Assembly (NCBI GenBank): GCA_963718525.1
Contig: OY970355.1
Location: 2,112,001-2,176,000, forward strand
DNA length: 64,000 nucleotides
DNA from: Candidatus Dormiibacterota bacterium
Lineage (GTDB): Bacteria; Chloroflexota; Dormibacteria; Aeolococcales; Aeolococcaceae
Direction: 5' to 3'
In this document: positions 26,197 through 54,268 of the stretch, one piece after another
Position numbering within the stretch: position 1 is the stretch's first letter
How the letters are laid out: each line of letters starts with the position of its first letter
Program-made: the position numbers and the translations under genes
The notes under the pieces: generated by a model
Seen by the model: the letters and a program-made list of their open reading frames with translations, nothing else
The model's database searches: none
Told to the model about the DNA's origin: nothing

Positions 26197-27016
26197 GTCG
26201 GATCGCCGAAGCTGACCGATCCAGGACCTGGGAGACCTCACCCGCCGCTGCCAGCAGATCCGGAAGCCACGCCTCAAGCCGCTCGAGGGTGCAACGCTCC
26301 GCAGGCCCGGCAATGGTGAGGGCGGCCGCGATGCTCCGATCCGGACCGAGTATCGGCGCCGAAACCGCGTCGATACCCTGGACGTGGGAGGACTGCGCGA
26401 GTGCGTATCCCTCGGAGGCAATCGTCTCGACACGGCGTACGAGGACGGCGCGCGATGGTATCGCCGGGTCCAGCTTGCGGAGCTGTGCCAGGTGGCTCCA
26501 GTACGCGCGACGGTCGGGCTCCGCGGCGTACGCCAGAAGGAGCTCGCCGGTCACGCCGCTGTGGAGCGGCGCGAGTTGCCCGATCTGCGCAACCCATCGA
26601 ATCTCATGAGTCCCTTCGACTGCTTCGATGCAGACGCGCTCGAAACCCGTCTGGACGTTGAGCGTGATCGTCTCGGCGGTCAGATCACGCAGACGGAGCA
26701 TGTACGGATACACCACGCCGCGGAGGTCCGCGCGTGAGTTCATCTGACGGAACAGCGTGAGCATCCGCCAGCTCAGCGCATATCGCTGAGTCTCCGGGTG
26801 CTGGTCGACGAGCTGCTTGCGGCGCAACGCGGTGAGGATGCGATGGATGGCGCTTCCGCTCGCCTTGGTTTCGCGCGCAAGCTCGGTGACGCTCAGCGAT
26901 CCCGTGTCCGTCTGGGCGAGCAGCAACAGGATCTCTGCAGCGCGCTCCACCGCGAGCGCGGACGCACTTCGTTCAAGCGCCGGCTCGGCGTCGGCAATCG
27001 CGACCGCCGCCTTCAT
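26168..27016 (-). CDS. IclR family transcriptional regulator
   Basis: AVERAAEILLLLA, SVTELA...HRILTAL, LRDLTAETI, PLHSG, AVSAPI, ALTIAGP; ATGA-coupled to the E2 gene. Confidence 0.9.
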   Translation of the reverse strand: MKAAVAIADAEPALERSASALAVERAAEILLLLAQTDTGSLSVTELARETKASGSAIHRILTALRRKQLVDQHPETQRYALSWRMLTLFRQMNSRADLRGVVYPYMLRLRDLTAETITLNVQTGFERVCIEAVEGTHEIRWVAQIGQLAPLHSGVTGELLLAYAAEPDRRAYWSHLAQLRKLDPAIPSRAVLVRRVETIASEGYALAQSSHVQGIDAVSAPILGPDRSIAAALTIAGPAERCTLERLEAWLPDLLAAAGEVSQVLDRSASAIRPTTSSHYRR

Positions 27017-28164
27017 ACGCCAGGCTCGGTGGGTGTGACGCTTTCCAGCCACTGACGGCACGCCCCGAGGAATGACGATGCCTGCAGGCCGTCCATCACC
27101 CGGTGATCAAGGCTGAGGCTTAGATACATCATCGGCCGCACCTCGGCTTTGCCGTTGACTGCGACGGGGCGATCCACAACCGAGCCCATGGTGATCACCG
27201 CGGATTGTCCCGGGGCGATCACCGAGTAGCTCAGCAATGTGCCAAGGGAACCGGAGTTGTTGACGGTGAAGGTTCCGCCGGAGAGATCCGCCGTCACCAG
27301 CTGTCGTGCGCGGGCACGAGCCGTGAGATCCCCGAGCGCTACCGCGAGCTCCGGAATCGAGAGGCGATCGGCGTTCTTGATGACCGGTACGATCACGCCC
27401 TCCGGCAGCCCCATGGCGACGCCGATGTTGATCGCGCGATGAACGATGATGCCGTCCTCGGAGAACGTCGAGTTGACCTCGGGGAATTTGCGCAGCGACG
27501 CCGCGGCTGCGGCCACCATGTACGTCAGGTATGAGAGCGACACGCCGTACTGGCGGCGCACCGTGCCGCGATTCACCTTCAGACCTCCGCCGACTGCGCT
27601 CATATCGACTTCCTGCATCTGCCACGCATGCGGGATGGTCGCTTTCGACAGCGCCATGCGCTCCGCGATGCGGCGACGCGTCGGAGTCAAGGGAATGACT
27701 TCGTCGCCTTCGAGTGACTGCGGGGGCGCGACAACGGTCGCCGGACCCGACGCTGCCCGCCGATGGGGAGGAGTTGGCACGTCTGGCTGCTGCGCGACCA
27801 CCTCTGGCACCGAGGAGTCATCGGCCGCATCGGATTGAGCAACCGCCTGCTGCCGTGCCGGAGGAGCCGCCGGGGTCGCCGGGACTTCGATGGTCGCCAC
27901 GTCGATGTCACCACCTGCGGCGCCGTTGACCTCCAGGACAGCGATGTCCGCTCCGACAGGGACCACCGCCCCCTCCGCTGCGAGGATTTCCGTGAGCACG
28001 CCGGTGACCGGAGCCGGCACTTCTGCGTCGACCTTGTCAGTGTTGATCTCGACCATGGCGTCGAACTCCGCAACCCGGTCTCCAGGATTAACCAGCCAGC
28101 GTGAGATGGTGCCCTCGGTTACGGATTCGCCGAGTTGCGGCATGGTGACCAGGTAGCGGCTCAT
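27013..28164 (-). CDS. 2-oxoacid dehydrogenase E2 (dihydrolipoamide acyltransferase), single lipoyl domain
   Basis: MPQLGESVTEG...EINTDKVDAEVPAP (lipoyl Lys), GGTFTVNN, SLDHRVMDG. Confidence 0.92.
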   Translation of the reverse strand: MSRYLVTMPQLGESVTEGTISRWLVNPGDRVAEFDAMVEINTDKVDAEVPAPVTGVLTEILAAEGAVVPVGADIAVLEVNGAAGGDIDVATIEVPATPAAPPARQQAVAQSDAADDSSVPEVVAQQPDVPTPPHRRAASGPATVVAPPQSLEGDEVIPLTPTRRRIAERMALSKATIPHAWQMQEVDMSAVGGGLKVNRGTVRRQYGVSLSYLTYMVAAAAASLRKFPEVNSTFSEDGIIVHRAINIGVAMGLPEGVIVPVIKNADRLSIPELAVALGDLTARARARQLVTADLSGGTFTVNNSGSLGTLLSYSVIAPGQSAVITMGSVVDRPVAVNGKAEVRPMMYLSLSLDHRVMDGLQASSFLGACRQWLESVTPTEPGV

Positions 28165-29246
28165 CGTCCTTCCTCCTTGGCTGTTTCTGCGCGTTGCTGC
28201 TCGATGCGAGTGGGCAGAACGTCGTACACGTGCTGAAAGATGTAATCGGAATCCGGCCGCGGGAGCGCCGATGCCGCTTTCTGTGCGGCATCGAGCTCGA
28301 GCCGGATCTCTGCTTTGAGAGCTTCGACATCGACTTCCGTCAACAGGCCGTGCGCGATCACATACCGTTCCACGCGGGCCAGCGGATCATTCGCGACCGC
28401 CGCCGCCACCTCGGCCTGGTGACGGTAGTCATTCGGGTTGTCCGAGGTGTTGTGAAAGCCAACTCGGTATGTCCGGCATTCGATGAGGGTCGGCCCCCCG
28501 CCTGCAAGGGCGCGGGTCACGGCTTCGTGGGATGCGGCGTACACCGCGAAGAGGTCGTCCCCGTCCACCACGACGCCGGGCATCCCGTATCCGAGCGCTC
28601 GGGAGGCGAGACTCGCCGCCGCGGTCTGTTTGTGAAATGGGGTCGAGATGGCGTACTGGTTGTTGATGACAACGATGACGAGCGGGACGCGCATCACCCC
28701 GGCAAGGTTCAGCAACTCGTGGAAATCGCCCTCCGAGGAAGCCCCGTCGCCGCAATAGACCATGACCGCTGCGTGCTCGTGGCGTAGCTTCATCGCCCAG
28801 GCCAACCCCGCGGCGTGCGGTAGCTGCGCGCCGATGGCCTGCTGCCGAGGCAGCAATTTGACGCCTTGCGGGATTCCCGCATGGTTCAGGCGCCCCATGT
28901 ATCCGGCGAAGAAATTGATCAGGGGAAGCCCGTGCCGGATCATGGCCGGCTGTTCGCGCGATGCGGGCACCATCCAGTCCCGGTCTGGGTCGAGCGCCAT
29001 CGCGGATCCGACAACGGCTGCCTCCTGCCCGTGCACCGGGGCGTAGAGACCGACACGTTTCAGGCGTTGGAGCTTGGTGGCCAGGTCGTCGATGGCTCGG
29101 GACTGGATCATGAGCCGGTATGCCTCGAGGATCTGATCCCTGCGCATCGGCACGGCGCCATCCACCTGGCCGTCGGGATTGAGGGGCTGCAGGGGAACCA
29201 CCGCGTGGTTGCCGGGTCCGGCCGTCACGGCGGGTTGGCGCGCCAT
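28161..29246 (-). CDS. 2-oxoacid (pyruvate/branched-chain) dehydrogenase E1 alpha
   Basis: GQEAA, TPP motif GDGASSEGDFHE...NNQYAIS, TYRVGFHNTSD. Confidence 0.92.
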   Translation of the reverse strand: MARQPAVTAGPGNHAVVPLQPLNPDGQVDGAVPMRRDQILEAYRLMIQSRAIDDLATKLQRLKRVGLYAPVHGQEAAVVGSAMALDPDRDWMVPASREQPAMIRHGLPLINFFAGYMGRLNHAGIPQGVKLLPRQQAIGAQLPHAAGLAWAMKLRHEHAAVMVYCGDGASSEGDFHELLNLAGVMRVPLVIVVINNQYAISTPFHKQTAAASLASRALGYGMPGVVVDGDDLFAVYAASHEAVTRALAGGGPTLIECRTYRVGFHNTSDNPNDYRHQAEVAAAVANDPLARVERYVIAHGLLTEVDVEALKAEIRLELDAAQKAASALPRPDSDYIFQHVYDVLPTRIEQQRAETAKEEGR

Positions 29247-30271
29247 CAGCCTTCCACAGCCTTTCGTACGGCGCTGATGATGCGTGGGACGGTCGGAAGC
29301 CACGCGTCTTCGAGCGCACCCGGGGGATAGGGCACATCGCGTCCGCCAACGCGGAGCACTGGGGAATCGAGTGACATGAACGCCTCCTCGTGGAGGGTGG
29401 CCGAGATCTCGGCACCGAATCCGCCGGTGAGCGGCGCCTCGTGCACGACCACCGCTCGTCCCGTGCTCGTCACTGCATGAACCAGCCCGTCGACATCAAG
29501 GGGGACCAATGTTCGAATGTCGAGCACCGCTGCCGAGATGCCGCTCGAATCGAGCTCGGCGGCCGCGGCGAGGCAGAGATGCACGGCTGCTCCCCACGCG
29601 ATCAGGGTGACGTCGGAACCCTGGCGCACGAGACGAGAGCGTCCGAACGGCAGCGGATCGTCGCGCACGGTGACTGGTCCTCTGACGGTGCGATACAAGC
29701 GCTGGGGCTCGACGAAGAGCACCGGATCGGGGTCTCGGATCGCCATGCTCAGCATGTTCCGCGCGTCGTCGGGGAACGCCGGACACACGATCTTGATGCC
29801 CGGGGTTTGCGCGAACTGCAACTCGACCGCGTCGGCATGGAACTCCGGGGTCCGAACGCCACCCCCGTCAGGCGCGCGAATGGTCACGGGCATCGGATAG
29901 CGGCCGCGCGATCGAGAGCGGAATCGCGCGAGCTGTGGGCCGACCTGATGAAAGGCCTGATACGTGAAGCCGAGAAACTGAATCTCCGGCACCGGAATCA
30001 TGCCCCCGATTGCGAGGCCCACCGATGCGCCGACAATGCTCGCCTCGGCCAGCGGGGTGTCGAAGACGCGATCGACGCCGAAGCGCTGTTGCAGTCCCTG
30101 GGTGACGCGAAACACGCCACCAAGTGTCCCCACGTCCATGCCGAAGACCACGACACGCTCGTCGCGCGCCATCTCCTCAAAGAGAGCGGCACGGATCGCC
30201 TCGAGGATCGACATCTCCTCGGTGGCCGGCGCCGCCTTTGCCTGGTGCACCACGGTCTGGACATCCGTCAT
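29246..30271 (-). CDS. 2-oxoacid (pyruvate/branched-chain) dehydrogenase E1 beta
   Basis: GGVFRVTQGL, DTPLAEASIVG, PVPEIQF, EFHAD, TGRAVVVHEA. Confidence 0.92.
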   Translation of the reverse strand: MTDVQTVVHQAKAAPATEEMSILEAIRAALFEEMARDERVVVFGMDVGTLGGVFRVTQGLQQRFGVDRVFDTPLAEASIVGASVGLAIGGMIPVPEIQFLGFTYQAFHQVGPQLARFRSRSRGRYPMPVTIRAPDGGGVRTPEFHADAVELQFAQTPGIKIVCPAFPDDARNMLSMAIRDPDPVLFVEPQRLYRTVRGPVTVRDDPLPFGRSRLVRQGSDVTLIAWGAAVHLCLAAAAELDSSGISAAVLDIRTLVPLDVDGLVHAVTSTGRAVVVHEAPLTGGFGAEISATLHEEAFMSLDSPVLRVGGRDVPYPPGALEDAWLPTVPRIISAVRKAVEG

Positions 30272-30823: not shown

Positions 30824-31453
30824 ATGCGATCGAGATTCTGGTATCTGGTAGGCGGCCTGGTCGTGGCAGGGGTGGCGGTCGGGTTCTTCGTGACCCGGTT
30901 CCTCAACCCGACGCCGCCGCAGATCACGGCTACCACGACGTCGGAGACCCTCCTGGGCCGCCCAGTCGTGAACTTCACTCTGACTACGGTCGCCGCCGTC
31001 GGCACCGCCGGTCAGGGAAATGGCGCGCATCCGAACTGGGTCGGCTATCTGCCCACCACCTATCTCAAGGTCCCTGCCGGGGCCGTCGTGCACATGACCA
31101 TCGATCAGCAGGACGGTCAGACCGGGCTCCGGAATGAATACCTCGGCCTTGTCAGAGGCACGATCAACAACCAGATGACTGTGGACGGCAAGGTCATGGG
31201 CGCGATCGATCCGTCTCTCGCTGCCCACACGTTCACCGTCCCGGACCTCGGACTGAGCGTTCCATTGGAGGGTGTCCCGGCGAACGCCGCAGCCAACGCG
31301 CAGATCGTGATCGAGTTCAGCTTCGTGGTGCCCGACAAGCCCGGCCTCTTCCGGTGGCAGTGCTTCGTCCCCTGTGCCGCGGGGACGCTCTACGGCAACG
31401 GCGGCCCAATGCAAACGCTCGGCTACATGGCCGGCGAGCTCCAGGTGGGCTGA
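30824..31453 (+). CDS. Membrane-anchored cupredoxin-like protein
   Basis: N-terminal TM helix; LKVPAGAVVHMTI, AHTFTVP, FSFVVPDKPGLFRWQCFVPC...PMQTLGYMAGELQV; first gene of the cox operon. Confidence 0.75.
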   Translation: MRSRFWYLVGGLVVAGVAVGFFVTRFLNPTPPQITATTTSETLLGRPVVNFTLTTVAAVGTAGQGNGAHPNWVGYLPTTYLKVPAGAVVHMTIDQQDGQTGLRNEYLGLVRGTINNQMTVDGKVMGAIDPSLAAHTFTVPDLGLSVPLEGVPANAAANAQIVIEFSFVVPDKPGLFRWQCFVPCAAGTLYGNGGPMQTLGYMAGELQVG

Positions 31454-31455
31454 CG

Positions 31456-32295
31456 ATGAGAAATCGAGCAGCGACCGGCCGGTTGGGGGTTGCCATCTGG
31501 ATCGTGGTTGCCGTCCTCGGCGACATCGCTCTAGCTCTCGCCCCCATCCCGCCCGGGCAGGCAGCGACCCTCGCGTCCGATGAGAGCGAGGTCATCAGGA
31601 TCCTCGCGATGGCCGGCTGGCCGATCTTCTTCGGCGTGTTGATGGGTCTCTACTTCATGCTCTTCTTGAATCGCGTCGCCCCTTCCGAGCGCGAGGTACC
31701 GCCCGGCGAACTCAGGGGCAACTCGCGTCTCCAGACGACGTGGATCGTCACGAGCGTAGTTCTGGTGCTCATCCTCGCCACCTATGGGACCGTCGAGCTC
31801 GCGAATGAGGAACCCGGAGCCGGGGTCCCGACTTCTGCGACGGCGCTTTCGCTTCCCACGTCCCCGAGCCAGCCGCTCGAGGTCCAGGTCATTGCACAGC
31901 AATGGTGGTTCACGTACAGGTATCCAGCGTATGGCGGCATCGAGACAGCGCAACTTGTGCTGCCGGTCGGGCAGAAGATTGAGTTCAATGTCACTTCCCT
32001 CGACGTCGTTCACTCCTTCAACTTCTTTGCGCTGGGCGTGAAAGCTGACGCTGTGCCCCTCAACGACAACGTCGTGTCGTCGACTCCAACCGAGATCGGA
32101 ACCTACAGGGTCCAGTGCACGGAGCTCTGCGGTCTCTGGCACGGAAACATGTCGGACAACACGGCGATGGTCGTGAGCCAGTCGGATTTTGCGTCCTGGA
32201 TACAACAGCAGACCGCGCTTGACGCACCGATCATGAAATATCTGCTGCCGTACAGCCACACGTACGAACCATCGCCAGTCGTCTACGGCCACTGA
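31456..32295 (+). CDS. coxB: Cytochrome c oxidase subunit II (CuA)
   Basis: Two TM helices, VQVIAQQWWFTYRY, SLDVVHSF, CTELCGLWHGNM; no fused cytochrome c. Confidence 0.93.
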   Translation: MRNRAATGRLGVAIWIVVAVLGDIALALAPIPPGQAATLASDESEVIRILAMAGWPIFFGVLMGLYFMLFLNRVAPSEREVPPGELRGNSRLQTTWIVTSVVLVLILATYGTVELANEEPGAGVPTSATALSLPTSPSQPLEVQVIAQQWWFTYRYPAYGGIETAQLVLPVGQKIEFNVTSLDVVHSFNFFALGVKADAVPLNDNVVSSTPTEIGTYRVQCTELCGLWHGNMSDNTAMVVSQSDFASWIQQQTALDAPIMKYLLPYSHTYEPSPVVYGH

Positions 32296-32330
32296 CGTGA
32301 TCGACCTCATGCACACAAGGGAAAGCTGAT

Positions 32331-34253
32331 GTGGATGCTGTAACCCCGACGCGCCCGCCGATATCTACTCGGCCGACGCTGGCACGCCGGCTCAACGAGT
32401 GGGGGCTGCTGCTTGGGGTCATTGGTGCGGTGATCGGTTTCCTCCTCGGGTTCTGGATTGGCAACCTGGCGATTGCCAACTCGTTCAGCACGGACAACTC
32501 GCTTGGTTCCGACCCGGGGATCCTGCTCGGCTATACCCTGAGCGTCGTTGGCTTCCTCGCCGGGATGGGCTTTCTCAACTACCCGATCGGCCGCCTGCTG
32601 GGCGCGAGGCGGCCTTCCGAGGAGGACAACGCCTACATGCACGGCGAGGGTGGCGGCTTGAGCCGCTACTTCCGCATGACGACCGATCACAAGGTGATCG
32701 GTTTGCAATACCTCATGATGATCCTCGCCTTCCTGTTCATCGGTGGATTGGGTGCGATGTTCATCAGGAGTGAGCTCCTGACGCCGGTGCCATCGGTCGC
32801 CAACGCGCAGTCGTACCTGACACTGGTGGGATTGCACAGCACGCTGATGATCTTCATGGCCTCAGCGGCGATCATCGGGCCGTTCGGCAACTACTTCGTC
32901 CCGATCATGATCGGGTCGCGCAACATGGCGTTTCCCCAACTCGAAGCGCTGACGTTCTGGCTGCTGCCGCCTGCGGGTCTGATTCTGTTGTCCACCGTGT
33001 TCCTCGGCGGATTCACGACCGGTTGGACGGGCTATGCCCCGCTCTCCGATCAGAACGTTCTCGGCATGGACGCGTACCTGATGGCATTTGCCTTGATCGG
33101 TCTCTCAATCGGCCTATCAGGTCTGAATATGATCGCGACCATTGTCACCAAGCGCCATCCCGGCATGCCATATAGCCGGATGCCGGTGTTCGTCTGGGGG
33201 GTGTTGGTCACTTCATTCCTTGGCCTTCTCGCCTCTCCGGCACTCATCGTCGCGGTGCTGATGGAGATGTTCAGCCGGACATATCAGACGACATTCTTCG
33301 TGCCCGCGGGCGGTGGCTCGCCGTATCTGTGGGAGAACCTGTTCTGGTTCTTCGGCCATCCAGAGGTCTACATCTTCGTCATTCCCGCGTTCGGACTGAT
33401 CATGGAGATGCTGCCCGCGTTCACCCGCAAGCCGCTGTGGGGGTACCGCGTGTCGATCGGCGGCATGGTGGAAGTCGGTCTCCTGAGCTTCACCGTCTGG
33501 CAGCACCACCTGTTCGTGAGCGGCCTGGCACCGTCGTTGCGCCCGTTCTACATGTTCTCAACAGAGCTGATCTCAGTTCCGACGGGCATCATCTATCTCA
33601 TCGCGCTGGGTTCGATGTGGCGAGCGCGCACCCGCTTCAGCACTCCGATGCTCTTCATCTGCGCATTCTTTTTCAACTTCCTGATCGGAGGATTCACTGG
33701 TGTTTTCCTCTCAGACGTCCCGAGTGATTTCACGCTGCACGCCAGCTACTTCGTTCAGGCTCACTTCCACTACACCATCATGGGTGGCGAGGTGTTCGCG
33801 CTCATGGCTGGGATCGTGTACTACCTTCCAAAGATGACGGGCGTGTCCATGGACACCAAGCTACTGAAGTTCCAATTCTGGGCGGTCTTTCTCACTTTCA
33901 ACGGAACGTTTCTCTCGCTGATCGCGGTCGGCATCATGGGTATGACGCGCCGCGTGATCAGTTATGCGCCCTATCTGCAACCGCTCAACGTCTCGGCCTC
34001 CATTTTCGCATTCGGCCTCGGAGCATCAATGGCGCTGTTCCTTGGAATCTTGATCTGGCAGGCCGCGATCAAGAAAGTGCCGGCTACGACCAACCCGTGG
34101 GAATCGCTGGGTGTCGAATGGCAGCTGCCGACGCCGGTTCCGATATTCAACTTCGACAAGGTGCCGACAGCCTGGTCGCTGCCGTACAACTACGACACCG
34201 GTAAGCCGGCGGCGGAGTTCGGCCCGGTTGTACCGGCCTTCGGTGGAGCGTGA
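32331..34253 (+). CDS. coxA: Heme-copper oxidase subunit I with N-terminal TM extension
   Basis: TTDHKVIG, GLHSTLM, GWTGYAPL, WFFGHPEVY, WQHH, AHFHY, MTRR. Confidence 0.95.
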   Translation: MDAVTPTRPPISTRPTLARRLNEWGLLLGVIGAVIGFLLGFWIGNLAIANSFSTDNSLGSDPGILLGYTLSVVGFLAGMGFLNYPIGRLLGARRPSEEDNAYMHGEGGGLSRYFRMTTDHKVIGLQYLMMILAFLFIGGLGAMFIRSELLTPVPSVANAQSYLTLVGLHSTLMIFMASAAIIGPFGNYFVPIMIGSRNMAFPQLEALTFWLLPPAGLILLSTVFLGGFTTGWTGYAPLSDQNVLGMDAYLMAFALIGLSIGLSGLNMIATIVTKRHPGMPYSRMPVFVWGVLVTSFLGLLASPALIVAVLMEMFSRTYQTTFFVPAGGGSPYLWENLFWFFGHPEVYIFVIPAFGLIMEMLPAFTRKPLWGYRVSIGGMVEVGLLSFTVWQHHLFVSGLAPSLRPFYMFSTELISVPTGIIYLIALGSMWRARTRFSTPMLFICAFFFNFLIGGFTGVFLSDVPSDFTLHASYFVQAHFHYTIMGGEVFALMAGIVYYLPKMTGVSMDTKLLKFQFWAVFLTFNGTFLSLIAVGIMGMTRRVISYAPYLQPLNVSASIFAFGLGASMALFLGILIWQAAIKKVPATTNPWESLGVEWQLPTPVPIFNFDKVPTAWSLPYNYDTGKPAAEFGPVVPAFGGA

Positions 34254-34858
34254 GCATGGGGGACGTCAGCCCGACCGGACTCACCGTCATCGACGAGGTC
34301 GCTGGAGGCGAACGCACGCTGGCCTTCGGCTCGCGGTTGGTCATGGCTGCGAACACAACCCTTCAGCTGAGCCTCCTCTTCGCATTTCTCTACCTGCGCG
34401 CGAACAACTTCGGCGGGATGTGGCACCCGAGCGGGGTCGGCACGCCACCTCAAGTGCTCGCGCTCGTCGCCTTGGCGTTTCCGTTGCTGACGCTCCTCGC
34501 CCTCTGGGGAGTCTGGAGCGGCCTGAGCAGGGCACGCGAATCCAGCGCGGTGTCGGGGTTGCTGTGGCTAGCTCTCCTGGGCGCGATCCTCACCGGGGCG
34601 GTGCGCATTCTCCTGATGTACCAGTTCAATTGGGAGCTCTTCAGCGCAGGCACGTATGCTGACCTGGCGACCTTGTGGTACGCGGTGCTATGCGCAGAGT
34701 TCATCGGGGTCGGTCTGTGGTTGTTGAGCCTTGTGATGGGGCACGTGCGCCGTACCGACCCACTGAGCACCGCACACGCCCGAGCCGTTCTGGAGCAGTG
34801 GACGTACATCACCGGCGTCTCGATCGCGGTGTACCTGCTGGTCCAGTACGTCACGTAG
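34250..34858 (+). CDS. coxC: Heme-copper oxidase subunit III-like (short, about 5 TM)
   Basis: Position after subunit I with GTGA overlap; LLFAFLYLRA.N; about 5 hydrophobic segments; divergent. Confidence 0.65.
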   Translation: MSMGDVSPTGLTVIDEVAGGERTLAFGSRLVMAANTTLQLSLLFAFLYLRANNFGGMWHPSGVGTPPQVLALVALAFPLLTLLALWGVWSGLSRARESSAVSGLLWLALLGAILTGAVRILLMYQFNWELFSAGTYADLATLWYAVLCAEFIGVGLWLLSLVMGHVRRTDPLSTAHARAVLEQWTYITGVSIAVYLLVQYVT

Positions 34859-34864
34859 GCCGGC

Positions 34865-35704
34865 ATGCTCTGGCGATCGCTGCTCGACTGGAGCTTCGAA
34901 CCAGTACCCATCGTAGGGTGCGCGACGGCCGCCTACCTCTACTGGCGCGGGCGGCGGACCGCGTCGCCGGCGTTGGGACGCTCGGCATCGTGGGACAACG
35001 GGGACACGGCGTTCGCACTCGGCATCGCAGCGCTCATGCTCGCCCTGGTGTCGCCGATCTCGTACTTCGATACCACGTTCCAGTGGGACCACATGGTGCA
35101 GCACGTGCTGCTGCTGCTGGTCGCTCCTCCGCTCATCCTGCTCGCAGACCCGTTTCGAACGGCGTGGGCTGGTTATCTCGCCGCGCAGGGAAGGCCCGCC
35201 TCGGTCGAAAACACCTGGCCCGCGCGCATGATGCGAATCCTCCACACGGGGCCGAAGGCGGCGATCGTCGTGGTCCTCGTGTTCAGTGTCGACCTCCTGG
35301 TCTGGCACCTCCCGGCTATCTACAACGCGACGCTCCGGCTTGCGTCGGTGCACGATCTTGAGCATCTGAGCTTTCTCGTCGTCGGTCTCCTGTTCTGGGA
35401 CCAGGTGATCAGCTCGGTCAAGGCGACCGAGCGGCTCTCGATGCTGGGTCGCGCGGTCGTGGTCCTGGCGGGGATGTTTGTGAGCTGGGGTCTCGCAATC
35501 GTCATCGCTTATGCGACGCAACCGCTGTACGCGTACCCCGTGACCCAGGGCGGGCTCAGCCTCCTGGGAGATCAGGAGATCGCCGCGGGTGTGATGTGGG
35601 TCCCGGGAGGCACGCCCTTCGTGGTCGCACTGCTCTACCTTGGCATCCGGTGGTTCGAGATCGACGACCGCTCCGCGGGCAGCACCGTGGTGACTCAGCC
35701 ATGA
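34865..35704 (+). CDS. ctaG: CtaG-like cytochrome c oxidase assembly factor (caa3_CtaG family)
   Basis: SPI, HMVQHVLLLLVAPPL, WHLPAIY, HDLEH, DQEIAAGVMW. Confidence 0.88.
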   Translation: MLWRSLLDWSFEPVPIVGCATAAYLYWRGRRTASPALGRSASWDNGDTAFALGIAALMLALVSPISYFDTTFQWDHMVQHVLLLLVAPPLILLADPFRTAWAGYLAAQGRPASVENTWPARMMRILHTGPKAAIVVVLVFSVDLLVWHLPAIYNATLRLASVHDLEHLSFLVVGLLFWDQVISSVKATERLSMLGRAVVVLAGMFVSWGLAIVIAYATQPLYAYPVTQGGLSLLGDQEIAAGVMWVPGGTPFVVALLYLGIRWFEIDDRSAGSTVVTQP

Positions 35705-36229
35705 GCAGGAAACCTCGTCTCGTGTTCGGCTGTGCCTTGGCATTGCTAGTCGCCGGGTGCGGCGGCCCGCACCTTCCTGCGAGTGCGTCGCAGCCTGTTA
35801 CGGCGTCGGGGGGCCCAACCCTGACCGGCAAGGACGTGAGCATCACGTCGTTCCGCGGGCATCCCGTGGTCTTGATTTTCTGGGCGTCGTGGTGCGGACC
35901 CTGCCATGATGAGCAGCCGGCGTTGAACACGTCGTATACAGCGTGGCTGTCTCGCGGCGTCGTGTTCCTGGGGATCGACCTGCGTGACACGACGGCACCC
36001 GCGCTCGCATTTCAGACGGCGTTCAAGGTGCCGTATCCCAGCATTGCGGACACGAACGCCACACTCGCGGTCGACTACCGTATTCCGTCGGCGCCCGCGT
36101 TGGTCTTTCTCAACACTCAGGGCAAGGTGGCCGATGTTGTCCTAGGAGGAACTCGGAACCATGAGCGTCGCCGCCTTCAATGCGGAGATCACCGCCCTCC
36201 TGGGCACGTCGACGACAGGAAGCGCATAG
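35701..36229 (+). CDS. TlpA/ResA-like thioredoxin lipoprotein; as sequenced it reads in-frame into ctaB, probably through a 1-nt insertion near 36151
   Basis: Lipobox LVAGC and FWASWCGPC. Removing one A gives VLGGLGTMSVAAFNAEITALLGTSTTGSA* with TAG at 36227-36229. Confidence 0.8.
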
Positions 36230-36237
36230 GAGCGGGA

Positions 36238-37191
36238 ATGCAAACCAGCGCAGAGATCGCGATGAGCCCGACGGACACCATTGGCGGGGCGGCAGCTGCT
36301 GATGCGGTCCAACTCGGTGCTTGGATGCAGCTCCGCTCACGCGCGCGCGACTACGTCAGTCTCGCCAAACCGCGAATCATCGTCCTTCTTCTGATCACGG
36401 AGCTCGCCACGATGATCATCGCCGCGCGTGGTATTCCATCGCTCGGCTTGCTCGTCTGGTCGGGGGTCGGCGGCGCGCTCGCTTCCGGGGGCTCCGGAGC
36501 GATCAACTGCTGGTATGACCGTGATATCGATCGGGTCATGGCACGGACCTGCAGCCGGCCGCTTCCATCGGGACGCATCCTGCCATGGCGGGCACTCACC
36601 TTCGGCGTCACGCTGATCGCCGCTTCGGTGATGGTGTTCGTGCTCGCGGCGAACATCCTGGCGGCCGCGCTCGCCCTGGGCGGCGCGCTCTTCTACGTCT
36701 TCATCTACACGATGTTGTTGAAGCGCAGAACCCCGCTCAACATCGTCATCGGCGGAGCTGCCGGCGCGTTTCCTCCGCTGGTCGGCTGGGCCGCGGTGCG
36801 CGGCGATGTCGGATGGCTCGCGTTCGTGTTGTTCGCGTTGGTCTTTCTCTGGACACCGCCGCACTTCTGGTCGCTCGCCTTGCTCCTGCGTCGTGACTAC
36901 CGGAATGCCAGCGTGCCGATGCTTCCCGGCATCATCGGCACCGCCCGGACCCACCGGCGGATCCTCTTCTACCTGCTGGCTCTGATCCTCGCGAGCCTGC
37001 TACCAGGACTGGTGCTGGGCATCGGGTACACGGTCGGAGCTGGCCTGCTCGGCGGTGGATATCTGGCGCTCGCGCTCTGGGCCCGCGCCAAAGCAACATC
37101 AGGCGCGGCCGCGTTGCTCTTCCATTACTCGCTGGCCTATCTCGCGCTCATCTTCGTCGTGGGCGCGGTGAGCGCGGTGGCGCTGGGCTAG
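36238..37191 (+). CDS. ctaB: Heme O synthase (protoheme IX farnesyltransferase)
   Basis: LAKPRI, NCWYDRDIDRVMART..RPLPSG, YTMLLKRRTPLNIVIGG, LWTPPHFWSL, DY..ASVPMLP; own SD (AGGAG) before the ATG at 36238. Confidence 0.92.
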   Translation: MQTSAEIAMSPTDTIGGAAAADAVQLGAWMQLRSRARDYVSLAKPRIIVLLLITELATMIIAARGIPSLGLLVWSGVGGALASGGSGAINCWYDRDIDRVMARTCSRPLPSGRILPWRALTFGVTLIAASVMVFVLAANILAAALALGGALFYVFIYTMLLKRRTPLNIVIGGAAGAFPPLVGWAAVRGDVGWLAFVLFALVFLWTPPHFWSLALLLRRDYRNASVPMLPGIIGTARTHRRILFYLLALILASLLPGLVLGIGYTVGAGLLGGGYLALALWARAKATSGAAALLFHYSLAYLALIFVVGAVSAVALG

Positions 37192-37244: not shown

Positions 37245-38630
37245 TCAGTGGCCCAGGGCGGCCGCCGCCTGTGTATCCATCGTCGATTCGATGGCCGACA
37301 CATTGGAGCTGCTTGGGTTCTGGAGGAACTGCAGCAGGTCGGCCCACATCTTCGGCTCCCAGGTTCCCTGAAGATCGTCGAGGCTGAACACAAAGCTGGT
37401 CGCGCTGACAAGGGCCTTCGCGTCGGCCTGTGTGACCGTATCGGGGTACGCACTCGGCTGGACCTGGTTGTTCGGGGACGCGAATCCACCGAGATGCGCC
37501 CAGATGGTTGCCCCCTCAGGTCCGGCGAGGTACTTGATCAGCGCGGTTGCCTGAGGCGTCGAGTTGAGCATCATCGCGACGTCACCCGCACCCTGGATGG
37601 CGCCGTTGTTGGCGCTGTCCGCTGCCGGCGCCGGGAACGGGAAGAAGTCGAAGCAGGGGTGGCTGGCGGCGCTGACGGTGCACGCCGCACCGCCGGCACC
37701 TGTGGTACCCGGGTTGTAGTTGGCCGAGTTGCCCGTGATCTCGCTGACCACGAAGTCACCCTCGAAGACCATCGCAGCCTGAGGCAGTGCGGGGGGCTTG
37801 GGGAAGACCTTGTCAACGCACGCGGGGTAAGCGTTGGAGAGCGACCCCTGCAGTCCGCCGAGCAGATACGCACGGTTGCTGACAAGCTGCGCCATGGTGG
37901 TGAACGCTGTCGTGACCGTCGCGTCCGTCCACTTCAGAGTGTGCGCAGCCAGCTTGTTGTACGCATCCGCGCCAGCGGTCTTGAGATAGATGTTCTGCCA
38001 CATGTCGGCGACCGGCCAGCCAACGTCGGTGCAGAGCGAGAACGGTGTGATGCCGGCCGCCTTCAGCTGCGCGGCGTCGGCGATCAACTGCTCCCAGGTC
38101 GAGGGTGGCGACGTGATACCGGCCTGCGCGAACAGTCCCGGGTTGTACCAGATGGTGTTCTTGTTCGCGCCCTTGAACCAGACGCCGTACTGCTTGCCGT
38201 TGTACGTGGCCAGCGTGTTCCACGCGGTGCCGAAGTTGGAGGTCAGACCGCTAAGGATGCTCGTCAGGTCCTTGATCGAACCGGCCTTGGCCAGGCTGTC
38301 CAGCGTACCCGGATCGGGCACCAGGGCGACGTCCGGCGGCGAACCGCCCGACACGGCTGCCGTCAGGGCGGTATCCATGTTGTTGCCCTTGCCCTGGTAG
38401 TTCACCGTGATCCCGGTCGATGCCTCAAACGGCGCCAGCGCGGCCAGGAAGTCCTGCTGCTCCTGCGCGGTCCACTCGGCCCACACACTCAGCGTTCCGC
38501 CGATCTTGCCGCTGGTCGACCCGCTGCTGGAGGCCGTGGGTGGGGTCGAGGTCGAACCGCATGCGGTCGCGATTCCCAGGACTCCAGCGGCCACCACCGC
38601 CAGTTTGCCCAGCCTGCTGCCCTGTGTCAT
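37245..38630 (-). CDS. Sugar ABC substrate-binding lipoprotein (AglE/GgtB alpha-glucoside-like)
   Basis: Lipobox IATAC, FEASTGITVNY, PPDVA, GVWFKGANKNTIWYN, GWPVADMWQNIYL, FDFFPFP, GAGD. Confidence 0.88.
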   Translation of the reverse strand: MTQGSRLGKLAVVAAGVLGIATACGSTSTPPTASSSGSTSGKIGGTLSVWAEWTAQEQQDFLAALAPFEASTGITVNYQGKGNNMDTALTAAVSGGSPPDVALVPDPGTLDSLAKAGSIKDLTSILSGLTSNFGTAWNTLATYNGKQYGVWFKGANKNTIWYNPGLFAQAGITSPPSTWEQLIADAAQLKAAGITPFSLCTDVGWPVADMWQNIYLKTAGADAYNKLAAHTLKWTDATVTTAFTTMAQLVSNRAYLLGGLQGSLSNAYPACVDKVFPKPPALPQAAMVFEGDFVVSEITGNSANYNPGTTGAGGAACTVSAASHPCFDFFPFPAPAADSANNGAIQGAGDVAMMLNSTPQATALIKYLAGPEGATIWAHLGGFASPNNQVQPSAYPDTVTQADAKALVSATSFVFSLDDLQGTWEPKMWADLLQFLQNPSSSNVSAIESTMDTQAAAALGH

Positions 38631-38631
38631 A

Positions 38632-38651
38632 TAGGTACTCCTAGGTACTCC
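38632..38651 (-). repeat. 10-bp tandem duplication containing the SD sequence
   Basis: Minus strand reads GGAGTACCTA GGAGTACCTA T ATG. Confidence 0.8.
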
Positions 38652-38770
38652 TGAGTAAGGCGAACCCTCAGCACGCCCCAGCGCTCCACGGCGCAAGCCC
38701 CCTGTGTACTCCACATGGACTCGAAACGCAACTGATTTCGGTGCGTCTCATACCAATGGGTGATGCCCGC

Positions 38771-38799
38771 TTGCGCAACCCCGTCCGCAGACGTAGGAT
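38771..38799 (+). promoter_or_regulatory. Candidate promoter for the sugar permease operon
   Basis: TTGCGC-N17-TAGGAT; the -35 lies within the palindrome TTGCGCAA. Confidence 0.45.
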
Positions 38800-38825
38800 C
38801 ACCCGCACTGTGGTGAGGGCCTGAG

Positions 38826-40262
38826 TTGGCGGTTGCCGTACCGACTTCTGAATCCGTACCGACTGCTCCTGCAGAGATCCTCCCCACCACGAGCAAACCG
38901 GCGGGCGGTGGCGGGTTCCGAAGCCACCTGGGGTCGTTGCTGTTTCTGCTGCCGGGGGCGATCTGGCTGCTGCTGATCGTGGTGTATCCGCTGATCGCGA
39001 CGATCGTCCGAAGCCTCTTTGACGGCAGCGGTCAGAACTTCATCGGCCTCGGCAACTACAAGTCCGTCTTCTCGACGACCGACATCATCGTCTCGCTGAA
39101 GAACAACGTGGTGTGGGTGATTCTGTTCCCGTTCCTGGTCACCTTCTTCGGGCTCGTCTTCGCGGTGCTCACCGAGCGTATCCGGTGGTCGACGGCGTTC
39201 AAGACCATCGTGTTCATGCCGCTGGTGTTCAGCGCGACCGCCGCCGGCCTGACATGGGCGTCGATCTTCTTCATCGATCCACACACCGGCATGGTCAACG
39301 CCTCGATCCAGGGTGTGAGCAACGCGATCAATCCACCCGGGCTCTACCCGATCGACCCGGCGAGCGGCCAGACCGTGTCGAGCCTCGCCGCCACGGGAAC
39401 GAAGCCGGGGCCTGGGGGCACGCTGGAAAGTTCGACCACCGTCAGTCCCGGGAACACCGTGCAACTCGGGATGATCGGCATCAGTCCGGTGACGCTGCAG
39501 CAGAATGGTGCAACCCCAGCCGTGGCGCCGACCGCCTCGTCGGGTATCTCGGGACTCGTGTGGCGCGATTTCTCGCCGACGCATCCGACCGTCCGCGGAC
39601 AGGTATTCCCCGACGAGGATGGGATCCCTGGGCTGCATCTCTCGCTGCTCAACGCGAGCAGCGCCTCCGTTGCCACGACAACGACGGCGAAGAACGGAAC
39701 ATTCACCTTCGCCAATCCCGGGCCAGGCAACTACCGCGTGGAGGTGACAGCCAACAACTTCCAGGCGGGGTTCAACGGCATCTTCTTCCTCGGCACGCAG
39801 TCGCTGACACCGACGAGCTCCCTGAGCCCAACGATGCAGGCGATCCTGAGCATTCCGATCGTCGACATCGCGATGATCATCGCGTATCTCTGGATCTGGG
39901 CCGGCTTCGCAATGGTGGTCATCGGCGCGGGTCTTGCCGCGTTGAATCGCGAGGTGCTCGAGGCCGCGCAGATTGACGGCGCCAGTGAATGGCAGACGTT
40001 GCGCCGGGTCACGGTGCCGATGCTGCGACCGGTGCTCGTGGTTGTCTTCGTCACCATGCTCATCAACGTCCTGAAGATCTTCGACATCATTCTCAACATG
40101 GCAGCGCCGTCATCGCAGGCCGGCGCGAGCACGCTCGCCGTCGACATCTACAACAACTTTTCGAGCCCGAACGGGCAGGGCCTCGCAGCAGCGCTCGCCG
40201 TGGTGCTGTTCATCCTGGTGATTCCCGCCATGCTGTTCAACCTCAAGAGGATCCGCGGATGA
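38826..40262 (+). CDS. Sugar ABC permease with a large extracytoplasmic SdrD-B/Cna-B-like insertion
   Basis: FIGLGNY, KTIVFMP, IWIWAGFAMV, EAAQIDGASEWQ, LKIFD; insertion ISGLVWRD...TTTAKNGTFTFANPGPGNYRVEV. Confidence 0.9.
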   Translation: MAVAVPTSESVPTAPAEILPTTSKPAGGGGFRSHLGSLLFLLPGAIWLLLIVVYPLIATIVRSLFDGSGQNFIGLGNYKSVFSTTDIIVSLKNNVVWVILFPFLVTFFGLVFAVLTERIRWSTAFKTIVFMPLVFSATAAGLTWASIFFIDPHTGMVNASIQGVSNAINPPGLYPIDPASGQTVSSLAATGTKPGPGGTLESSTTVSPGNTVQLGMIGISPVTLQQNGATPAVAPTASSGISGLVWRDFSPTHPTVRGQVFPDEDGIPGLHLSLLNASSASVATTTTAKNGTFTFANPGPGNYRVEVTANNFQAGFNGIFFLGTQSLTPTSSLSPTMQAILSIPIVDIAMIIAYLWIWAGFAMVVIGAGLAALNREVLEAAQIDGASEWQTLRRVTVPMLRPVLVVVFVTMLINVLKIFDIILNMAAPSSQAGASTLAVDIYNNFSSPNGQGLAAALAVVLFILVIPAMLFNLKRIRG

Positions 40263-41176
40263 GCGTTCAGTCTGCGTCGTTGCCGGTCACCACGTCGCCG
40301 CGGAAGCGGCGTTTCCGGCTGCGCCCCTCGCGCATCGTGCTGAACATCGTGCTCGCGGCAATCGCGGTCTTCTGGCTCGTTCCCGCCATCGGCATCGCGA
40401 TCATCTCGCTCCGCCCCAACGCCTCCTTTGAACAGTCCGGTTGGTGGACAGTGCTGACGGCACCCGCGCAGCTGACGTTCAACAACTATCAGCAGCTGTT
40501 CTCGAAGGGATTCGCGGCGGGGGGCGTCCTCAACTCGCTGACCACGTCGATCGCGATCACCGTGCCGGTGACGATCCTGGTCACGGTGATCTCGAGCCTC
40601 ACCGCGTACTCACTCGTTTTCGGCCGGTGGCGCGGGAGAACCCTGGTCTTTCTGCTCATCGTTGCGATGCTTGTGCTGCCGCTGCAGATGGCGCTGATAC
40701 CCATAGCGAGCCTGTACAAAATTATTGACAACGCCACCGGGCTGCACCTGTTCGGGTCCCTGATCGGCGCGATCATCTTTCACGTTGCGTTCGGCCTGCC
40801 GTTCGGCATCTTCCTGATGCGCAACTTCTACTCCGGCATCCCGCACGACCTGCTCGAGGCGGGCCGGATCGACGGAGCGGGGGAGTGGACGCTCTTCCGG
40901 AAAGTCGTCATGCCGATCGGAATCCCGGCGCTCGCGTCGCTCGCCATCTTCCAGTTCATCTGGGTCTGGAACGACCTGCTGGTCGCGCTCATCTTCCTGG
41001 GGAACAGCTCCCACATCACGCTGACCATGTATCTGTACAGCTGGACCAGAGCCCTGTCGTCCAACTACTGGATCATCTCCACGGGGGCGATGATCTCGAT
41101 CATCATCCCCTTGATTGTGTTCTTTGCATTCCAGCGATACTTCGTCCGAGGCGTGCTCGCCGGGGCGGTGAAATGA
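40259..41176 (+). CDS. Sugar ABC permease
   Basis: PLQMALIP, FGLPFGIFLMRN, EAGRIDGA, FQFIWVWNDLL, FQRYFVRG; ATGA-coupled start. Confidence 0.92.
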   Translation: MSVQSASLPVTTSPRKRRFRLRPSRIVLNIVLAAIAVFWLVPAIGIAIISLRPNASFEQSGWWTVLTAPAQLTFNNYQQLFSKGFAAGGVLNSLTTSIAITVPVTILVTVISSLTAYSLVFGRWRGRTLVFLLIVAMLVLPLQMALIPIASLYKIIDNATGLHLFGSLIGAIIFHVAFGLPFGIFLMRNFYSGIPHDLLEAGRIDGAGEWTLFRKVVMPIGIPALASLAIFQFIWVWNDLLVALIFLGNSSHITLTMYLYSWTRALSSNYWIISTGAMISIIIPLIVFFAFQRYFVRGVLAGAVK

Positions 41177-41186
41177 GGAGCGTGTG

Positions 41187-42320
<1,134 letters not shown>

Positions 42321-51928: not shown

Positions 51929-54268
51929 ATGGCCGTCACCTCGATGATCGGCGCCCGCATCCAGCGACGCGAAGATCCCAAGCTCATCACCGGGCACGGC
52001 AACTTCATCGACGACATCAACCTTGTGAACATGGCGCACATGTCGGTGGTGCGCAGCCCGCACGCGCATGCGCGCATCCGCTCGATCGACACCTCGGCCG
52101 CACGAGCGGCCAAAGGCGTGGTTGCGGTGCTCACGGCCGCCGACTTCAAGTCGGTCATCCTCGGGCCGCTCCCGGTGACCAATTCGTTTGTCGCGGACAA
52201 GAAGCAGGTCCCGGAACAGTTCCCGATCGCGGCGACGGAGGCAGCCTATGCGGGCGAGCCGGTGGCCGTGGTCATCGCGGATGACCGCTACCTCGCCGAC
52301 GATGCCGCCCAGCTCGTCGTCGTCGACTACGAGCCGCTCCCAGCCGTCATGGACCTGGAGAAGGCGATGGCGCCGGGCAGCCCGCTGGTGAAGAGCGACA
52401 GGCCCGACAACATCGGGTGGGACGCGGCGTTTCCCGCCGGCGACATCGACGCAGCGTTTGCCGAGGCAGACGTGGTGCTCAAGCAGCGCATCGGCCAGCA
52501 GCGCGTGTTTCCGACGGCGATGGAGACCCGCGGTTGCGTCGCCGACTACGTCCCCTACGACAACCGCTGCACGTTGTGGACCTCGACCCAGGTGCCGCAC
52601 TTCATCCGTCTCTTCGTGGGGGGCGCGCTTGGCGTCCCGGAATCGCAATTCCGCGTCGTCAGCCACGACGTCGGCGGTGGATTCGGAGCCAAGCTACGCC
52701 CATATCCCGAGGAATACCTGGCGACCGCGGCGTCAAAGATCACCGAGCGACCGGTGAAGTGGATCGAGGACCGCACCGAGAGCCTGCAGGCGACGACTCA
52801 GGGACGTGGGCAGATCTTCGATGTCGAGGTGGCAGCCAAGCGGGACGGCACGCTTCTGGGGTTGAAGTTCACGCAACTGCTCGACATCGGCGCTTATCAC
52901 GGCGTGTTCAGCGCCTTCCAGGTGGTGGCATGCCTCCTCGGTGGCGGCTGCTATGACTTCAAGGCGATCCACGCGCGAAGCATCGGCGTCTTCACCAACC
53001 GCATGTCCACCGACCCGTATCGCGGTGCCGGCCGGCCGGAGGCGACCCACCTGGTCGAGCGCGTCGTCGATCTGGTGGCGCGAGAGTTCGGCATGGACCC
53101 GGCCGAGGTTCGGCGCAAGAACTTCATCAAGACGTTCCCCCACACCAACAATTTCGGGCTCGTCTACAACTCCGGTGAGTACGAGAAGTCGATGGATCGC
53201 GCCATGGCGAACATCGACTACCCTGCGCTGCGCAAGCGCCAGGAGGAGTTGCGCGCCCAGGGCCGCTACACCGGGATCGGCTTCAGCACCTACGTTGAGA
53301 TCTGCGGACTCGGCCCGAGTTCGGCCACTGCGCCGGCGGCGGGCATCGCGCTCGTCGAGTCATCGATGGTCCGCGTCCATCCCACAGGATCGGTGACGGT
53401 GTCAGTCGGGACGCACGCGCACGGTCAGGGTCACGAGACCACATTCGCGCAGATCGTGGCCGACACACTCGGTGTCCCGTACGACTCGGTGGAGATCCGC
53501 CACGGCGACACCGGCGACACCCCGTTCGGTTACGGAACTTACGGGTCTCGTAGCCTCGCCGTCGGCGGCATGGCGATCATGGCGTCGTGTCACAAGGTGG
53601 TCGAGAAGGCCAAGAAGCTTGCGGCACACGCATTTGAAGCATCTGATGAAGACATCGTCGTAGACCAGGGACGCTACTTCGTGCGCGGCAACCCGAGCGA
53701 CGCAAAAGTCCTTGCGGAGCTGGCGTTTGCCTCATACGGAGCGGGGCTCCCCGAGGGTATGGAGCAGGAACTCGAGGCCGTGTCGTACTTCGACCCGCCG
53801 AACTTCGTGTGGCCGTTCGGCTGCCACATCTGCGCCGTCGAGGTCGATCCCGAAACGGGCGTGGTGACCTTCGATCGTTACGTTGCGGTGGACGACTGCG
53901 GCAACGTGATCAACCCGTTGGTGGTCGACGGACAATTGCACGGGGGCATTGCCCAGGGGATCTCCCAAGCGCTCTTTGAAGAGGTGCAGTACGACGACGA
54001 GACCGGGCAGATGCTGAACGGCACCATGCTCGACTACCTGATTCCTACCATGGCGGAGATGCCGCACTTCGAGCTCGACCGAACGGTGACGCCGAGCCCG
54101 ACCAACGAGCTGGGGGTCAAGGGCATTGGTGAGGCGGGAACCATCGCATCGAGCATCGCGGTGATCAATGCGATCACCGACGCGCTCTCGCCCTTCGGGA
54201 TCAAACACGTGGAGATGCCTGCGCGTCCGGATCGCCTCTGGTCGATGATCAAGGAGGCACGCGCATGA
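51929..54268 (+). CDS. coxL: Molybdopterin large subunit, form II CoxL-like (not a bona fide form I CO dehydrogenase)
   Basis: VGGGFGAK, active-site loop PYRGAGRPEA (53015-53035), HGQGHET, GTYGSRS, KGIGEAG. Confidence 0.9.
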   Translation: MAVTSMIGARIQRREDPKLITGHGNFIDDINLVNMAHMSVVRSPHAHARIRSIDTSAARAAKGVVAVLTAADFKSVILGPLPVTNSFVADKKQVPEQFPIAATEAAYAGEPVAVVIADDRYLADDAAQLVVVDYEPLPAVMDLEKAMAPGSPLVKSDRPDNIGWDAAFPAGDIDAAFAEADVVLKQRIGQQRVFPTAMETRGCVADYVPYDNRCTLWTSTQVPHFIRLFVGGALGVPESQFRVVSHDVGGGFGAKLRPYPEEYLATAASKITERPVKWIEDRTESLQATTQGRGQIFDVEVAAKRDGTLLGLKFTQLLDIGAYHGVFSAFQVVACLLGGGCYDFKAIHARSIGVFTNRMSTDPYRGAGRPEATHLVERVVDLVAREFGMDPAEVRRKNFIKTFPHTNNFGLVYNSGEYEKSMDRAMANIDYPALRKRQEELRAQGRYTGIGFSTYVEICGLGPSSATAPAAGIALVESSMVRVHPTGSVTVSVGTHAHGQGHETTFAQIVADTLGVPYDSVEIRHGDTGDTPFGYGTYGSRSLAVGGMAIMASCHKVVEKAKKLAAHAFEASDEDIVVDQGRYFVRGNPSDAKVLAELAFASYGAGLPEGMEQELEAVSYFDPPNFVWPFGCHICAVEVDPETGVVTFDRYVAVDDCGNVINPLVVDGQLHGGIAQGISQALFEEVQYDDETGQMLNGTMLDYLIPTMAEMPHFELDRTVTPSPTNELGVKGIGEAGTIASSIAVINAITDALSPFGIKHVEMPARPDRLWSMIKEARA

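Follow-up and report, generated by a model that had tools for sequence, protein, structure and literature searches.

The subject of this work is a 64,000-nucleotide stretch of DNA from a Candidatus Dormiibacterota bacterium (assembly GCA_963718525.1, contig OY970355.1, positions 2,112,001 to 2,176,000 of the forward strand), hereafter the window, and within it an operon for a heme-copper oxidase that is led by a gene for a putative cupredoxin, which we call cup. An original prediction, made from the DNA letters alone, had proposed the gene order cupredoxin-coxB-coxA-coxC-ctaG-tlpA-ctaB, and both the open reading frames (ORFs) of the window and profile searches confirm it, with all seven genes on the + strand. 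The operon is composed of the following genes (aa, amino acids).

30824..31453, + strand: cup, 209-aa membrane-anchored protein with a predicted cupredoxin fold (helix prediction, conservation and structure model)
31456..32295, + strand: coxB, subunit II, 279 aa, with a CuA domain (profile match)
32331..34253, + strand: coxA, subunit I of family A, carrying two additional N-terminal helices (profile match and residues)
34250..34858, + strand: coxC, subunit III, 202 aa, short and divergent (homologue-based)
34865..35704, + strand: ctaG, caa3-type CtaG copper-insertion factor (PF09678, E 1e-42)
35701..36229, + strand: tlpA, TlpA-like thioredoxin lipoprotein (profile and comparison with relatives)
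36238..37191, + strand: ctaB, CtaB heme O synthase, 317 aa (family match)

As had been proposed, the operon contains no gene for a c-type cytochrome, its sole CxxCH motif being the thioredoxin active site of TlpA. CoxB, equally in line with the original prediction, has no cytochrome c fused to it: it exhibits three hydrophobic segments and a CuA domain alone, whose motif is intact (H186, C221, E223, C225, H229 and M232). CoxC is indeed short, and short forms of subunit III are common among bacteria. It has no Pfam match itself; among its homologues, L026 passes the cut-off for COX3 (E 2e-5) and L033 matches COX3 weakly. In the assembly, tlpA and ctaB are spanned by a single 531-aa ORF caused by one extra base near 36150. 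We rejected a TlpA-CtaB fusion as an assembly error because this base is missing from all four contig sets of the runs holding this DNA (one study), and because tlpA ends normally in 11/11 loci of the same genus.

The cup product has no Pfam or NCBIfam match and no family name, and we found no description of its family in the literature, one that Degli Esposti 2020 (BBA) or preprint supplements may contain. It has an N-terminal helix at residues 5-23, and its closest named homologues, among 2041 found (616 representatives), are from Ca. Dormiibacterota. An alignment of 60 members sharing 26-60% identity, which include 59 of 150 listed representatives and were chosen for a complete C terminus, many of the others looking frameshifted or partial, reveals seven invariant residues: D97, H135, C180, C184, M196, M202 and G204. 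These give an invariant ligand pattern, His...Cys-x3-Cys...Met-x5-Met, with no C-terminal His ligand after C180. A structure model built from 60 diverse sequences, with a predicted local distance difference test (pLDDT) score of 92.8, was used in place of an earlier one from 39 close sequences, which had left the ligand loop unresolved. All 50 listed fold matches of this model are of the cupredoxin type, with Z scores of 10.2 for CupA (root mean square deviation 2.0 over 96 aligned residues), 9.7 for nitrosocyanin, 8.8 for rusticyanin, 8.2 for the ba3 CuA domain and 6.8 for AcoP. Profile searches with cup also hit auracyanin at E 1e-4 and the CuA domain of ba3 subunit II at E 0.007, and 13 of the 60 members match Cupredoxin_1 at E up to 0.1. 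A cupredoxin fold is thereby supported at the level of modeling.

The ligand set of this widespread cupredoxin, one His, two Cys and two Met, fits neither of the usual rules. The set of type 1 blue and green copper proteins (His...Cys-xn-His-xm-Met), as found in AcoP, rusticyanin and sulfocyanin, does not occur in it, and none of the 60 members matches SoxE. Of the CuA motif (His...Cys-x3-Cys-x3-His-x2-Met), the first His and both Cys are present and the second His is absent. Because the spacing of the Cys and the flanking strands resemble those of CuA, our reading of the sequences is that this is probably a CuA-like site with a Met in the place of the second His. The corresponding His of CuA is an acid-labile ligand. 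The proposed equivalence with AcoP did not survive: the ligands of AcoP are Cys...His...Met as against Cys-x3-Cys...Met...Met in the window, and AcoP ranks 42nd among the 50 listed fold matches. A short-loop variant of the family, Cys-x3-Cys-x4-Met-x5-Met, in which five candidate ligands are kept, was seen at L161:10289-10927, L162:10660-11220 and L163:3104-4465.

A synteny survey, which the original prediction had called for, bears out that the cupredoxin is conserved before coxB: cup lies directly upstream in 107 of the 109 loci with a coxB encoding a full CuA motif. Actinobacterial loci were fetched by CoxA, not by cup, as the best 80 of 599 matches ranked by likeness to L041, a sample of Actinomycetota only. 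Cup is contained in 75 of these 80, the other five being cut upstream, and stands directly before coxB in 74/76, the two exceptions being a locus cut upstream and one with a broken cup. Of 20 Dormibacteria loci of the main subfamily, cup directly precedes a full coxB in 18; of the remaining two, one is cut and the other lacks an oxidase. The companion genes across 20 Dormibacteria loci are ctaB (14), ctaG (13) and tlpA (11). Both coxA and coxB are found in 16/20 other Chloroflexota loci. Even in the six rearranged operons with coxA ahead of coxB, cup stays before coxB. A Sco chaperone gene is present beside cup in loci of relatives (8/8 candidates confirmed); it lies directly upstream of cup in L023, L024 and L030, and not so in the window. 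Cup paralogues have an oxidase in 1/20 loci, and in two loci a stand-alone paralogue immediately precedes a gene that fuses CopC and CopD (L049:5833-7494 and L052:5766-7421, both on the - strand). As for distribution, 33 of 36 genomes in the genus are carriers, as are 83 of 201 in the class and 39 of 301 in the phylum; cup is found in 54/61 relatives and in 8/151 genomes of the class of G221. Within the best 80 of 599 actinobacterial matches, many carriers are soil, bog, peat and palsa organisms, including Streptosporangiaceae, and Acidiferrimicrobium sp. IK has the order cup-coxB-coxA (L151).

CoxA exhibits two hydrophobic segments (25-43 and 64-82) before the COX1 domain begins near residue 123; these are the roughly two extra N-terminal transmembrane (TM) helices that had been noted at the outset. 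Because all metal ligands (H169, H343, H392, H393, H478 and H480, for the hemes and CuB), the helix VI cross-link Tyr347 and E345 are retained, CoxA is, as judged from its sequence, a family A O2 reductase. The residues that define a canonical A1/A2 K channel (Lys, Ser and the subunit II Glu) are all replaced, by I421 for the Lys, by M358 and I424 at the Ser positions and by Q93 of CoxB for the entry Glu; the Lys is kept by 6/6 canonical controls. In the D channel, N187, N266 and E345, the Glu of the XGHPEVY motif at which the channel ends, are kept, and the entry carboxylate is shifted, the Asp position being occupied by N198 and the Asn position by E205. Three further residues, E412, S415 and D462, are specific to the clade.

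We compared 116 CoxA sequences (the window, 18 Dormibacteria, 83 mostly actinobacterial and 14 other Chloroflexota). The K-channel Lys is lost in all 116, hereafter K-less, and helix VIII Glu412, Ser415 and D462 are present in all 116; E412 and D462 occur in 0/6 canonical controls. At the mouth of the D channel (positions 132 and 139 in R. sphaeroides numbering, by homology), Asp132 and Asn139 are kept in 9/116, and a residue other than Asp132 is paired with Glu139 in 107/116. One K-less branch thus copies a laboratory suppressor pair: N139D alone is reported to uncouple the enzyme, and the D132N/N139D double mutant to regain full pumping (PMC7196763; also PMC3840923). By analogy with that mutant, the natural 132/139 pairing suggests a coupled, pumping enzyme. 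That CoxA stands apart from ordinary oxidases, as had been suspected, is borne out by a tree of 56 rows, with an outgroup of six long-branched rows and with Acidithiobacillus, Sulfobacillus and the B and C families unrepresented, in which 50 K-less rows are separated from six K-bearing rows by a branch supported 100/100. The K-less side divides in two, 10 rows forming an Asp132 group and 40 a group that includes the Glu139 sequences, and the window CoxA joins K-less enzymes of Acidimicrobiia and Chloroflexota (100/100, in a tree without the accessions named in PMC8239418). In plasmid searches, the top rows listed hold no recognizable K-less enzyme, and cup is likewise unmatched.

The oxidase type is already known. 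CoxA fits the COX1 subclade published as '2TM Chloroflexi & Actinobacteria', which the journal supplementary tables, in the part available, list with Ca. Dormibacter PZR78255 as a member (Degli Esposti et al. 2021, PMC8239418), and the suggestion that such a module was undescribed in such a host therefore falls. The accessible part of the preprint places K-less 2TM COX1 in acidophilic iron oxidizers, environmental Actinobacteria and Chloroflexi, and the non-acidophilic Thioclava (Degli Esposti et al., bioRxiv 10.1101/2020.03.01.968255); the predicted likeness to acidophile enzymes holds in the two extra helices and the loss of the K channel that those authors report. The window shares with the subclade the two extra helices, the HPEVY motif, the caa3-CtaG partner, a hydrophobic residue at K354 and the loss of S291, S357 and COX2 E78, and its K-channel residues Y M I T I E are the pattern tabulated for the group. 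The available text of supplement 2 of PMC8239418 has no mention of cupredoxin and states no significant D-channel change, unlike the swap in 107/116 found here, and a further difference from the published account is the presence of E412 and D462 in all 116. Neither E412 in all K-less CoxA nor the 132/139 swap was found described in the literature searched. What emerges is a known oxidase subclade with an unnamed cupredoxin partner and with channel changes that are not found in that literature.

Exactly two COX1 genes are present in the host genome (G000; 3.34 Mb, 88.9% complete), and the K-less enzyme accompanies a canonical oxidase and cytochrome bd as a second oxidase. The canonical YSHPAVY enzyme, with its K- and D-channel residues present and no cup beside it, belongs to an A2 oxidase cluster outside the window (G000:C1:289261-298902, - strand), which also holds Rieske, cytochrome b6, subunit IV and triheme cytochrome c genes together with ctaA, ctaB and ctaG; a gene for subunit III was not seen there. 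The host further encodes a RuBisCO large subunit and a CO dehydrogenase that passes the form I cut-off. At G000:C1:2163971-2166244 (window about 51971-54244, + strand) there is a CoxL-like molybdenum hydroxylase that falls short of that cut-off. In this 88.9% complete genome, neither SoxE nor PCuAC is matched, and no Sco match passes the cut-off. Four runs, all soil metagenomes of a single study and perhaps the source, contain most of this DNA, and there is no RNA dataset among the runs listed as containing it.

While the host has cytochrome c, its sister family f2 offers a different context. A cytochrome c maturation gene (PF01578) is found in 0/26 f2 genomes, 81-94% complete, and in 22/22 genomes of the other families tested; one f2 example, G049, is a single contig, 92% complete, with no such match. 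Class I cytochrome c (PF13442) has no match in the 12 f2 genomes tested, all of which have a Rieske and cytochrome b pair. CuA oxidases are kept in f2, and a cup-family gene is found in 22/26 of its genomes. At L210-L222 (family f2) and at L223, Rieske and full-length cytochrome b genes are present, and the stretch read around them holds no cytochrome c. After these Rieske/cytochrome b genes comes a membrane protein of >400 aa that matched no assigned family, an arrangement found in 12/12 f2 genomes tested and absent from the host genome.

Two Acidimicrobiia genomes provide another context: after four cup-family genes in tandem come a Tat-type 4Fe-4S protein (DsrO/QrcC-like) and then an NrfD membrane subunit.

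L161:6016-10927, - strand: tandem cup and NrfC/D module, genome G222 (families assigned for L161)
L162:6367-11220, - strand: tandem cup and NrfC/D module, genome G354

These modules lie downstream of a two-component system and, at L162, sulfide:quinone reductase-like and TusE genes are found further upstream. The arrangement looks like a quinol oxidizer with copper proteins in the usual place of multiheme cytochromes.

Our preferred reading, to which we give a probability of roughly 0.6, is that cup is a membrane-anchored, putatively copper-binding electron carrier to the CuA of CoxB that replaces cytochrome c; an oxidase fed by a copper protein, as originally proposed, is thus also the best reading here. 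We favor it because of the linkage of cup with coxB, the invariant ligands and the profile matches to auracyanin and ba3 CuA; because the cytochrome-c-free f2 keeps Rieske/cytochrome b, CuA oxidases and mostly cup; because tandem cup genes occur with NrfC/D modules and Sco coexists with cup in relatives; and because in archaea, as reported in the available text of PMC3062577, the place of cytochrome c is taken by halocyanin and sulfocyanin. Quinol would be oxidized by a Rieske/cytochrome b complex (in the host, G000 295904-298902, with its own triheme cytochrome c), and electrons would then pass to cup, whose His/Cys/Cys/Met/Met set would form the CuA-like site with Met for the second His, and on through CuA, the hemes and CuB to O2. 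Protons would enter via the D channel, its carboxylate one turn further inward (N198/E205) as in the pumping laboratory double mutant, and the invariant helix VIII Glu412, with Ser415, Thr418 and Tyr347, may replace the lost lysine. In the host, this second oxidase most likely serves ordinary organic or trace-gas respiration.

Several observations weigh against an electron carrier. The 60 aligned sequences were picked for a full C-terminal motif, and the window's own genome has cytochrome c. Four f2 genomes have no cup match, three of which have a COX2 gene; the canonical f2 oxidase is likewise without cytochrome c, so that another route could serve both; and f2 is one lineage, thus one loss event. 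Other points speak equally for a dedicated chaperone or protector of the CoxB CuA, in which cup would work with TlpA, bind Cu(I) by its two Cys and two Met and carry no respiratory electrons. The best fold match of the modeled protein is the Cu(I) chaperone CupA, in a tie with several others; two of the 20 stand-alone paralogue loci adjoin CopC/CopD genes; neither Sco nor PCuAC reaches the cut-off in the host, at 88.9% completeness; a site rich in Cys and Met is, by established chemistry, well matched to Cu(I); AcoP has a protective role; and cup stays with coxB specifically. We nevertheless consider a chaperone rather unlikely: Sco is already beside cup in relatives, the tandem copies accompany NrfC/D modules with no CuA to load, the host's canonical CuA oxidase has no cup beside its genes, and the cytochrome-c-free f2 needs some carrier. 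Cup could also be a fixed extra subunit, either a second CuA-like relay or a structural partner in a Rieske/cytochrome b-oxidase supercomplex, and this overlaps with a carrier in its electron flow. The membrane anchor, the likeness to CuA domains, one Atlas cluster with 14% COX2 members and extra CoxA and CoxB helices that could dock cup are consistent with it, but the operon lacks Rieske and cytochrome b genes and stand-alone, secreted-looking paralogues exist, which makes a fixed subunit improbable.

The proposal that the module feeds Fe(II) electrons into respiration, with a surface cup accepting them as sulfocyanin does in Ferroplasma, is very improbable for this soil organism. It has precedents, since K-less 2TM COX1 is listed in the available part of PMC8239418 for iron oxidizers including Acidimicrobium ferrooxidans and Acidithrix, a-type cytochromes of actinobacterial iron oxidizers grown on Fe(II) are reported in the accessible text of PMC5143472, and the Ferroplasma sulfocyanin is described in that of PMC13741234. 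Met ligation could, moreover, raise the potential of the site. However, the module is near-universal in the genus and common in soil, bog, palsa and peat actinobacteria, as counted above, and the runs with most of this DNA are soil metagenomes. The operon has no cyc2, cyc1 or rus (no family search of the whole genome was made for rusticyanin or Cyc2), the host genome has no sulfocyanin (SoxE) match, and its form I CO dehydrogenase and RuBisCO give another energy source. Iron oxidation, as originally suggested for the donor side, is thus poorly supported for the window organism. For Acidimicrobiia it may still apply, in view of the cup-coxB-coxA operon of Acidiferrimicrobium sp. IK, whose genus oxidizes iron, and of the a-type spectra. 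Adaptation to acid is plausible from the record titles, and K-less COX1 is also reported from the non-acidophilic Thioclava.

On a broader view, the electron carrier may be one instance of something more general: a new CuA-like copper site that would substitute for cytochrome c in soil Chloroflexota and acid-tolerant Actinobacteria, linking Rieske/cytochrome b or NrfC/D to a K-less oxidase that would pump by means of a relocated D-channel carboxylate and the helix VIII Glu, maybe with Fe(II) entry in iron-oxidizing Acidimicrobiia. We put this forward tentatively, as a generalization with less than an even chance of holding. Family f2, in which CuA oxidases occur and cytochrome c is not detectable, would be a case among abundant soil bacteria of complexes III and IV being joined by copper proteins only, in the archaeal manner. 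Although the oxidase type is catalogued, we found no biochemical study of it in the literature searched; a natural family A oxidase that lacks the K-channel lysine, and whose members all gain the helix VIII Glu, offers a direct test of how the K channel can be bypassed. The flanks of the operon (27013-30271, - strand, and 37245-42320) have no relation to the oxidase: they are occupied by a 2-oxoacid dehydrogenase E1/E2 cluster and by genes of a sugar ABC transporter.

How does the operon compare with known systems? For a Dormibacterota genome from acid mine drainage, the available text of PMC8357290 says no more than that it has a caa3-type oxidase. The Acidithiobacillus ferrooxidans rus operon, given as cyc2-cyc1-cup/AcoP-coxBACD-rus (PMC10654088, as available), shares with the window a cupredoxin directly before coxB and a K-less 2TM COX1, and differs in that the window operon has no cyc2, cyc1, rus or coxD. 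While proteobacterial COX2 without the CuA Glu are described in the accessible part of bioRxiv 10.1101/2020.03.01.968255, CoxB of the window keeps E223. Five 'soxE' genes are reported in Sulfobacillus (PMC6315122, in the part available). With the CuA domain of subunit II, cup shares a His followed by a similar strand, the Cys-x3-Cys and a final Met before the last strand; in contrast to it, cup lacks a His in the stretch from the second Cys to the last Met and has a Pro at the Glu position and a loop about 11 residues longer, which carries the second Met. CupA of Streptococcus pneumoniae is, like cup, a membrane-anchored single cupredoxin and is its top structural match, but the two share 16% identity and the match is tied with other cupredoxins. 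CupA has a two-Cys/two-Met site and a partner efflux ATPase. In Sulfolobus SoxM (sulfocyanin) and with the halocyanin of Natronomonas, a copper protein bridges Rieske/cytochrome b and the oxidase in place of cytochrome c (PMC3062577, as available). The gene set of family f2 matches a chain of this SoxM/halocyanin type, with the difference that sulfocyanin and halocyanin, unlike cup, are type 1 blue copper proteins.

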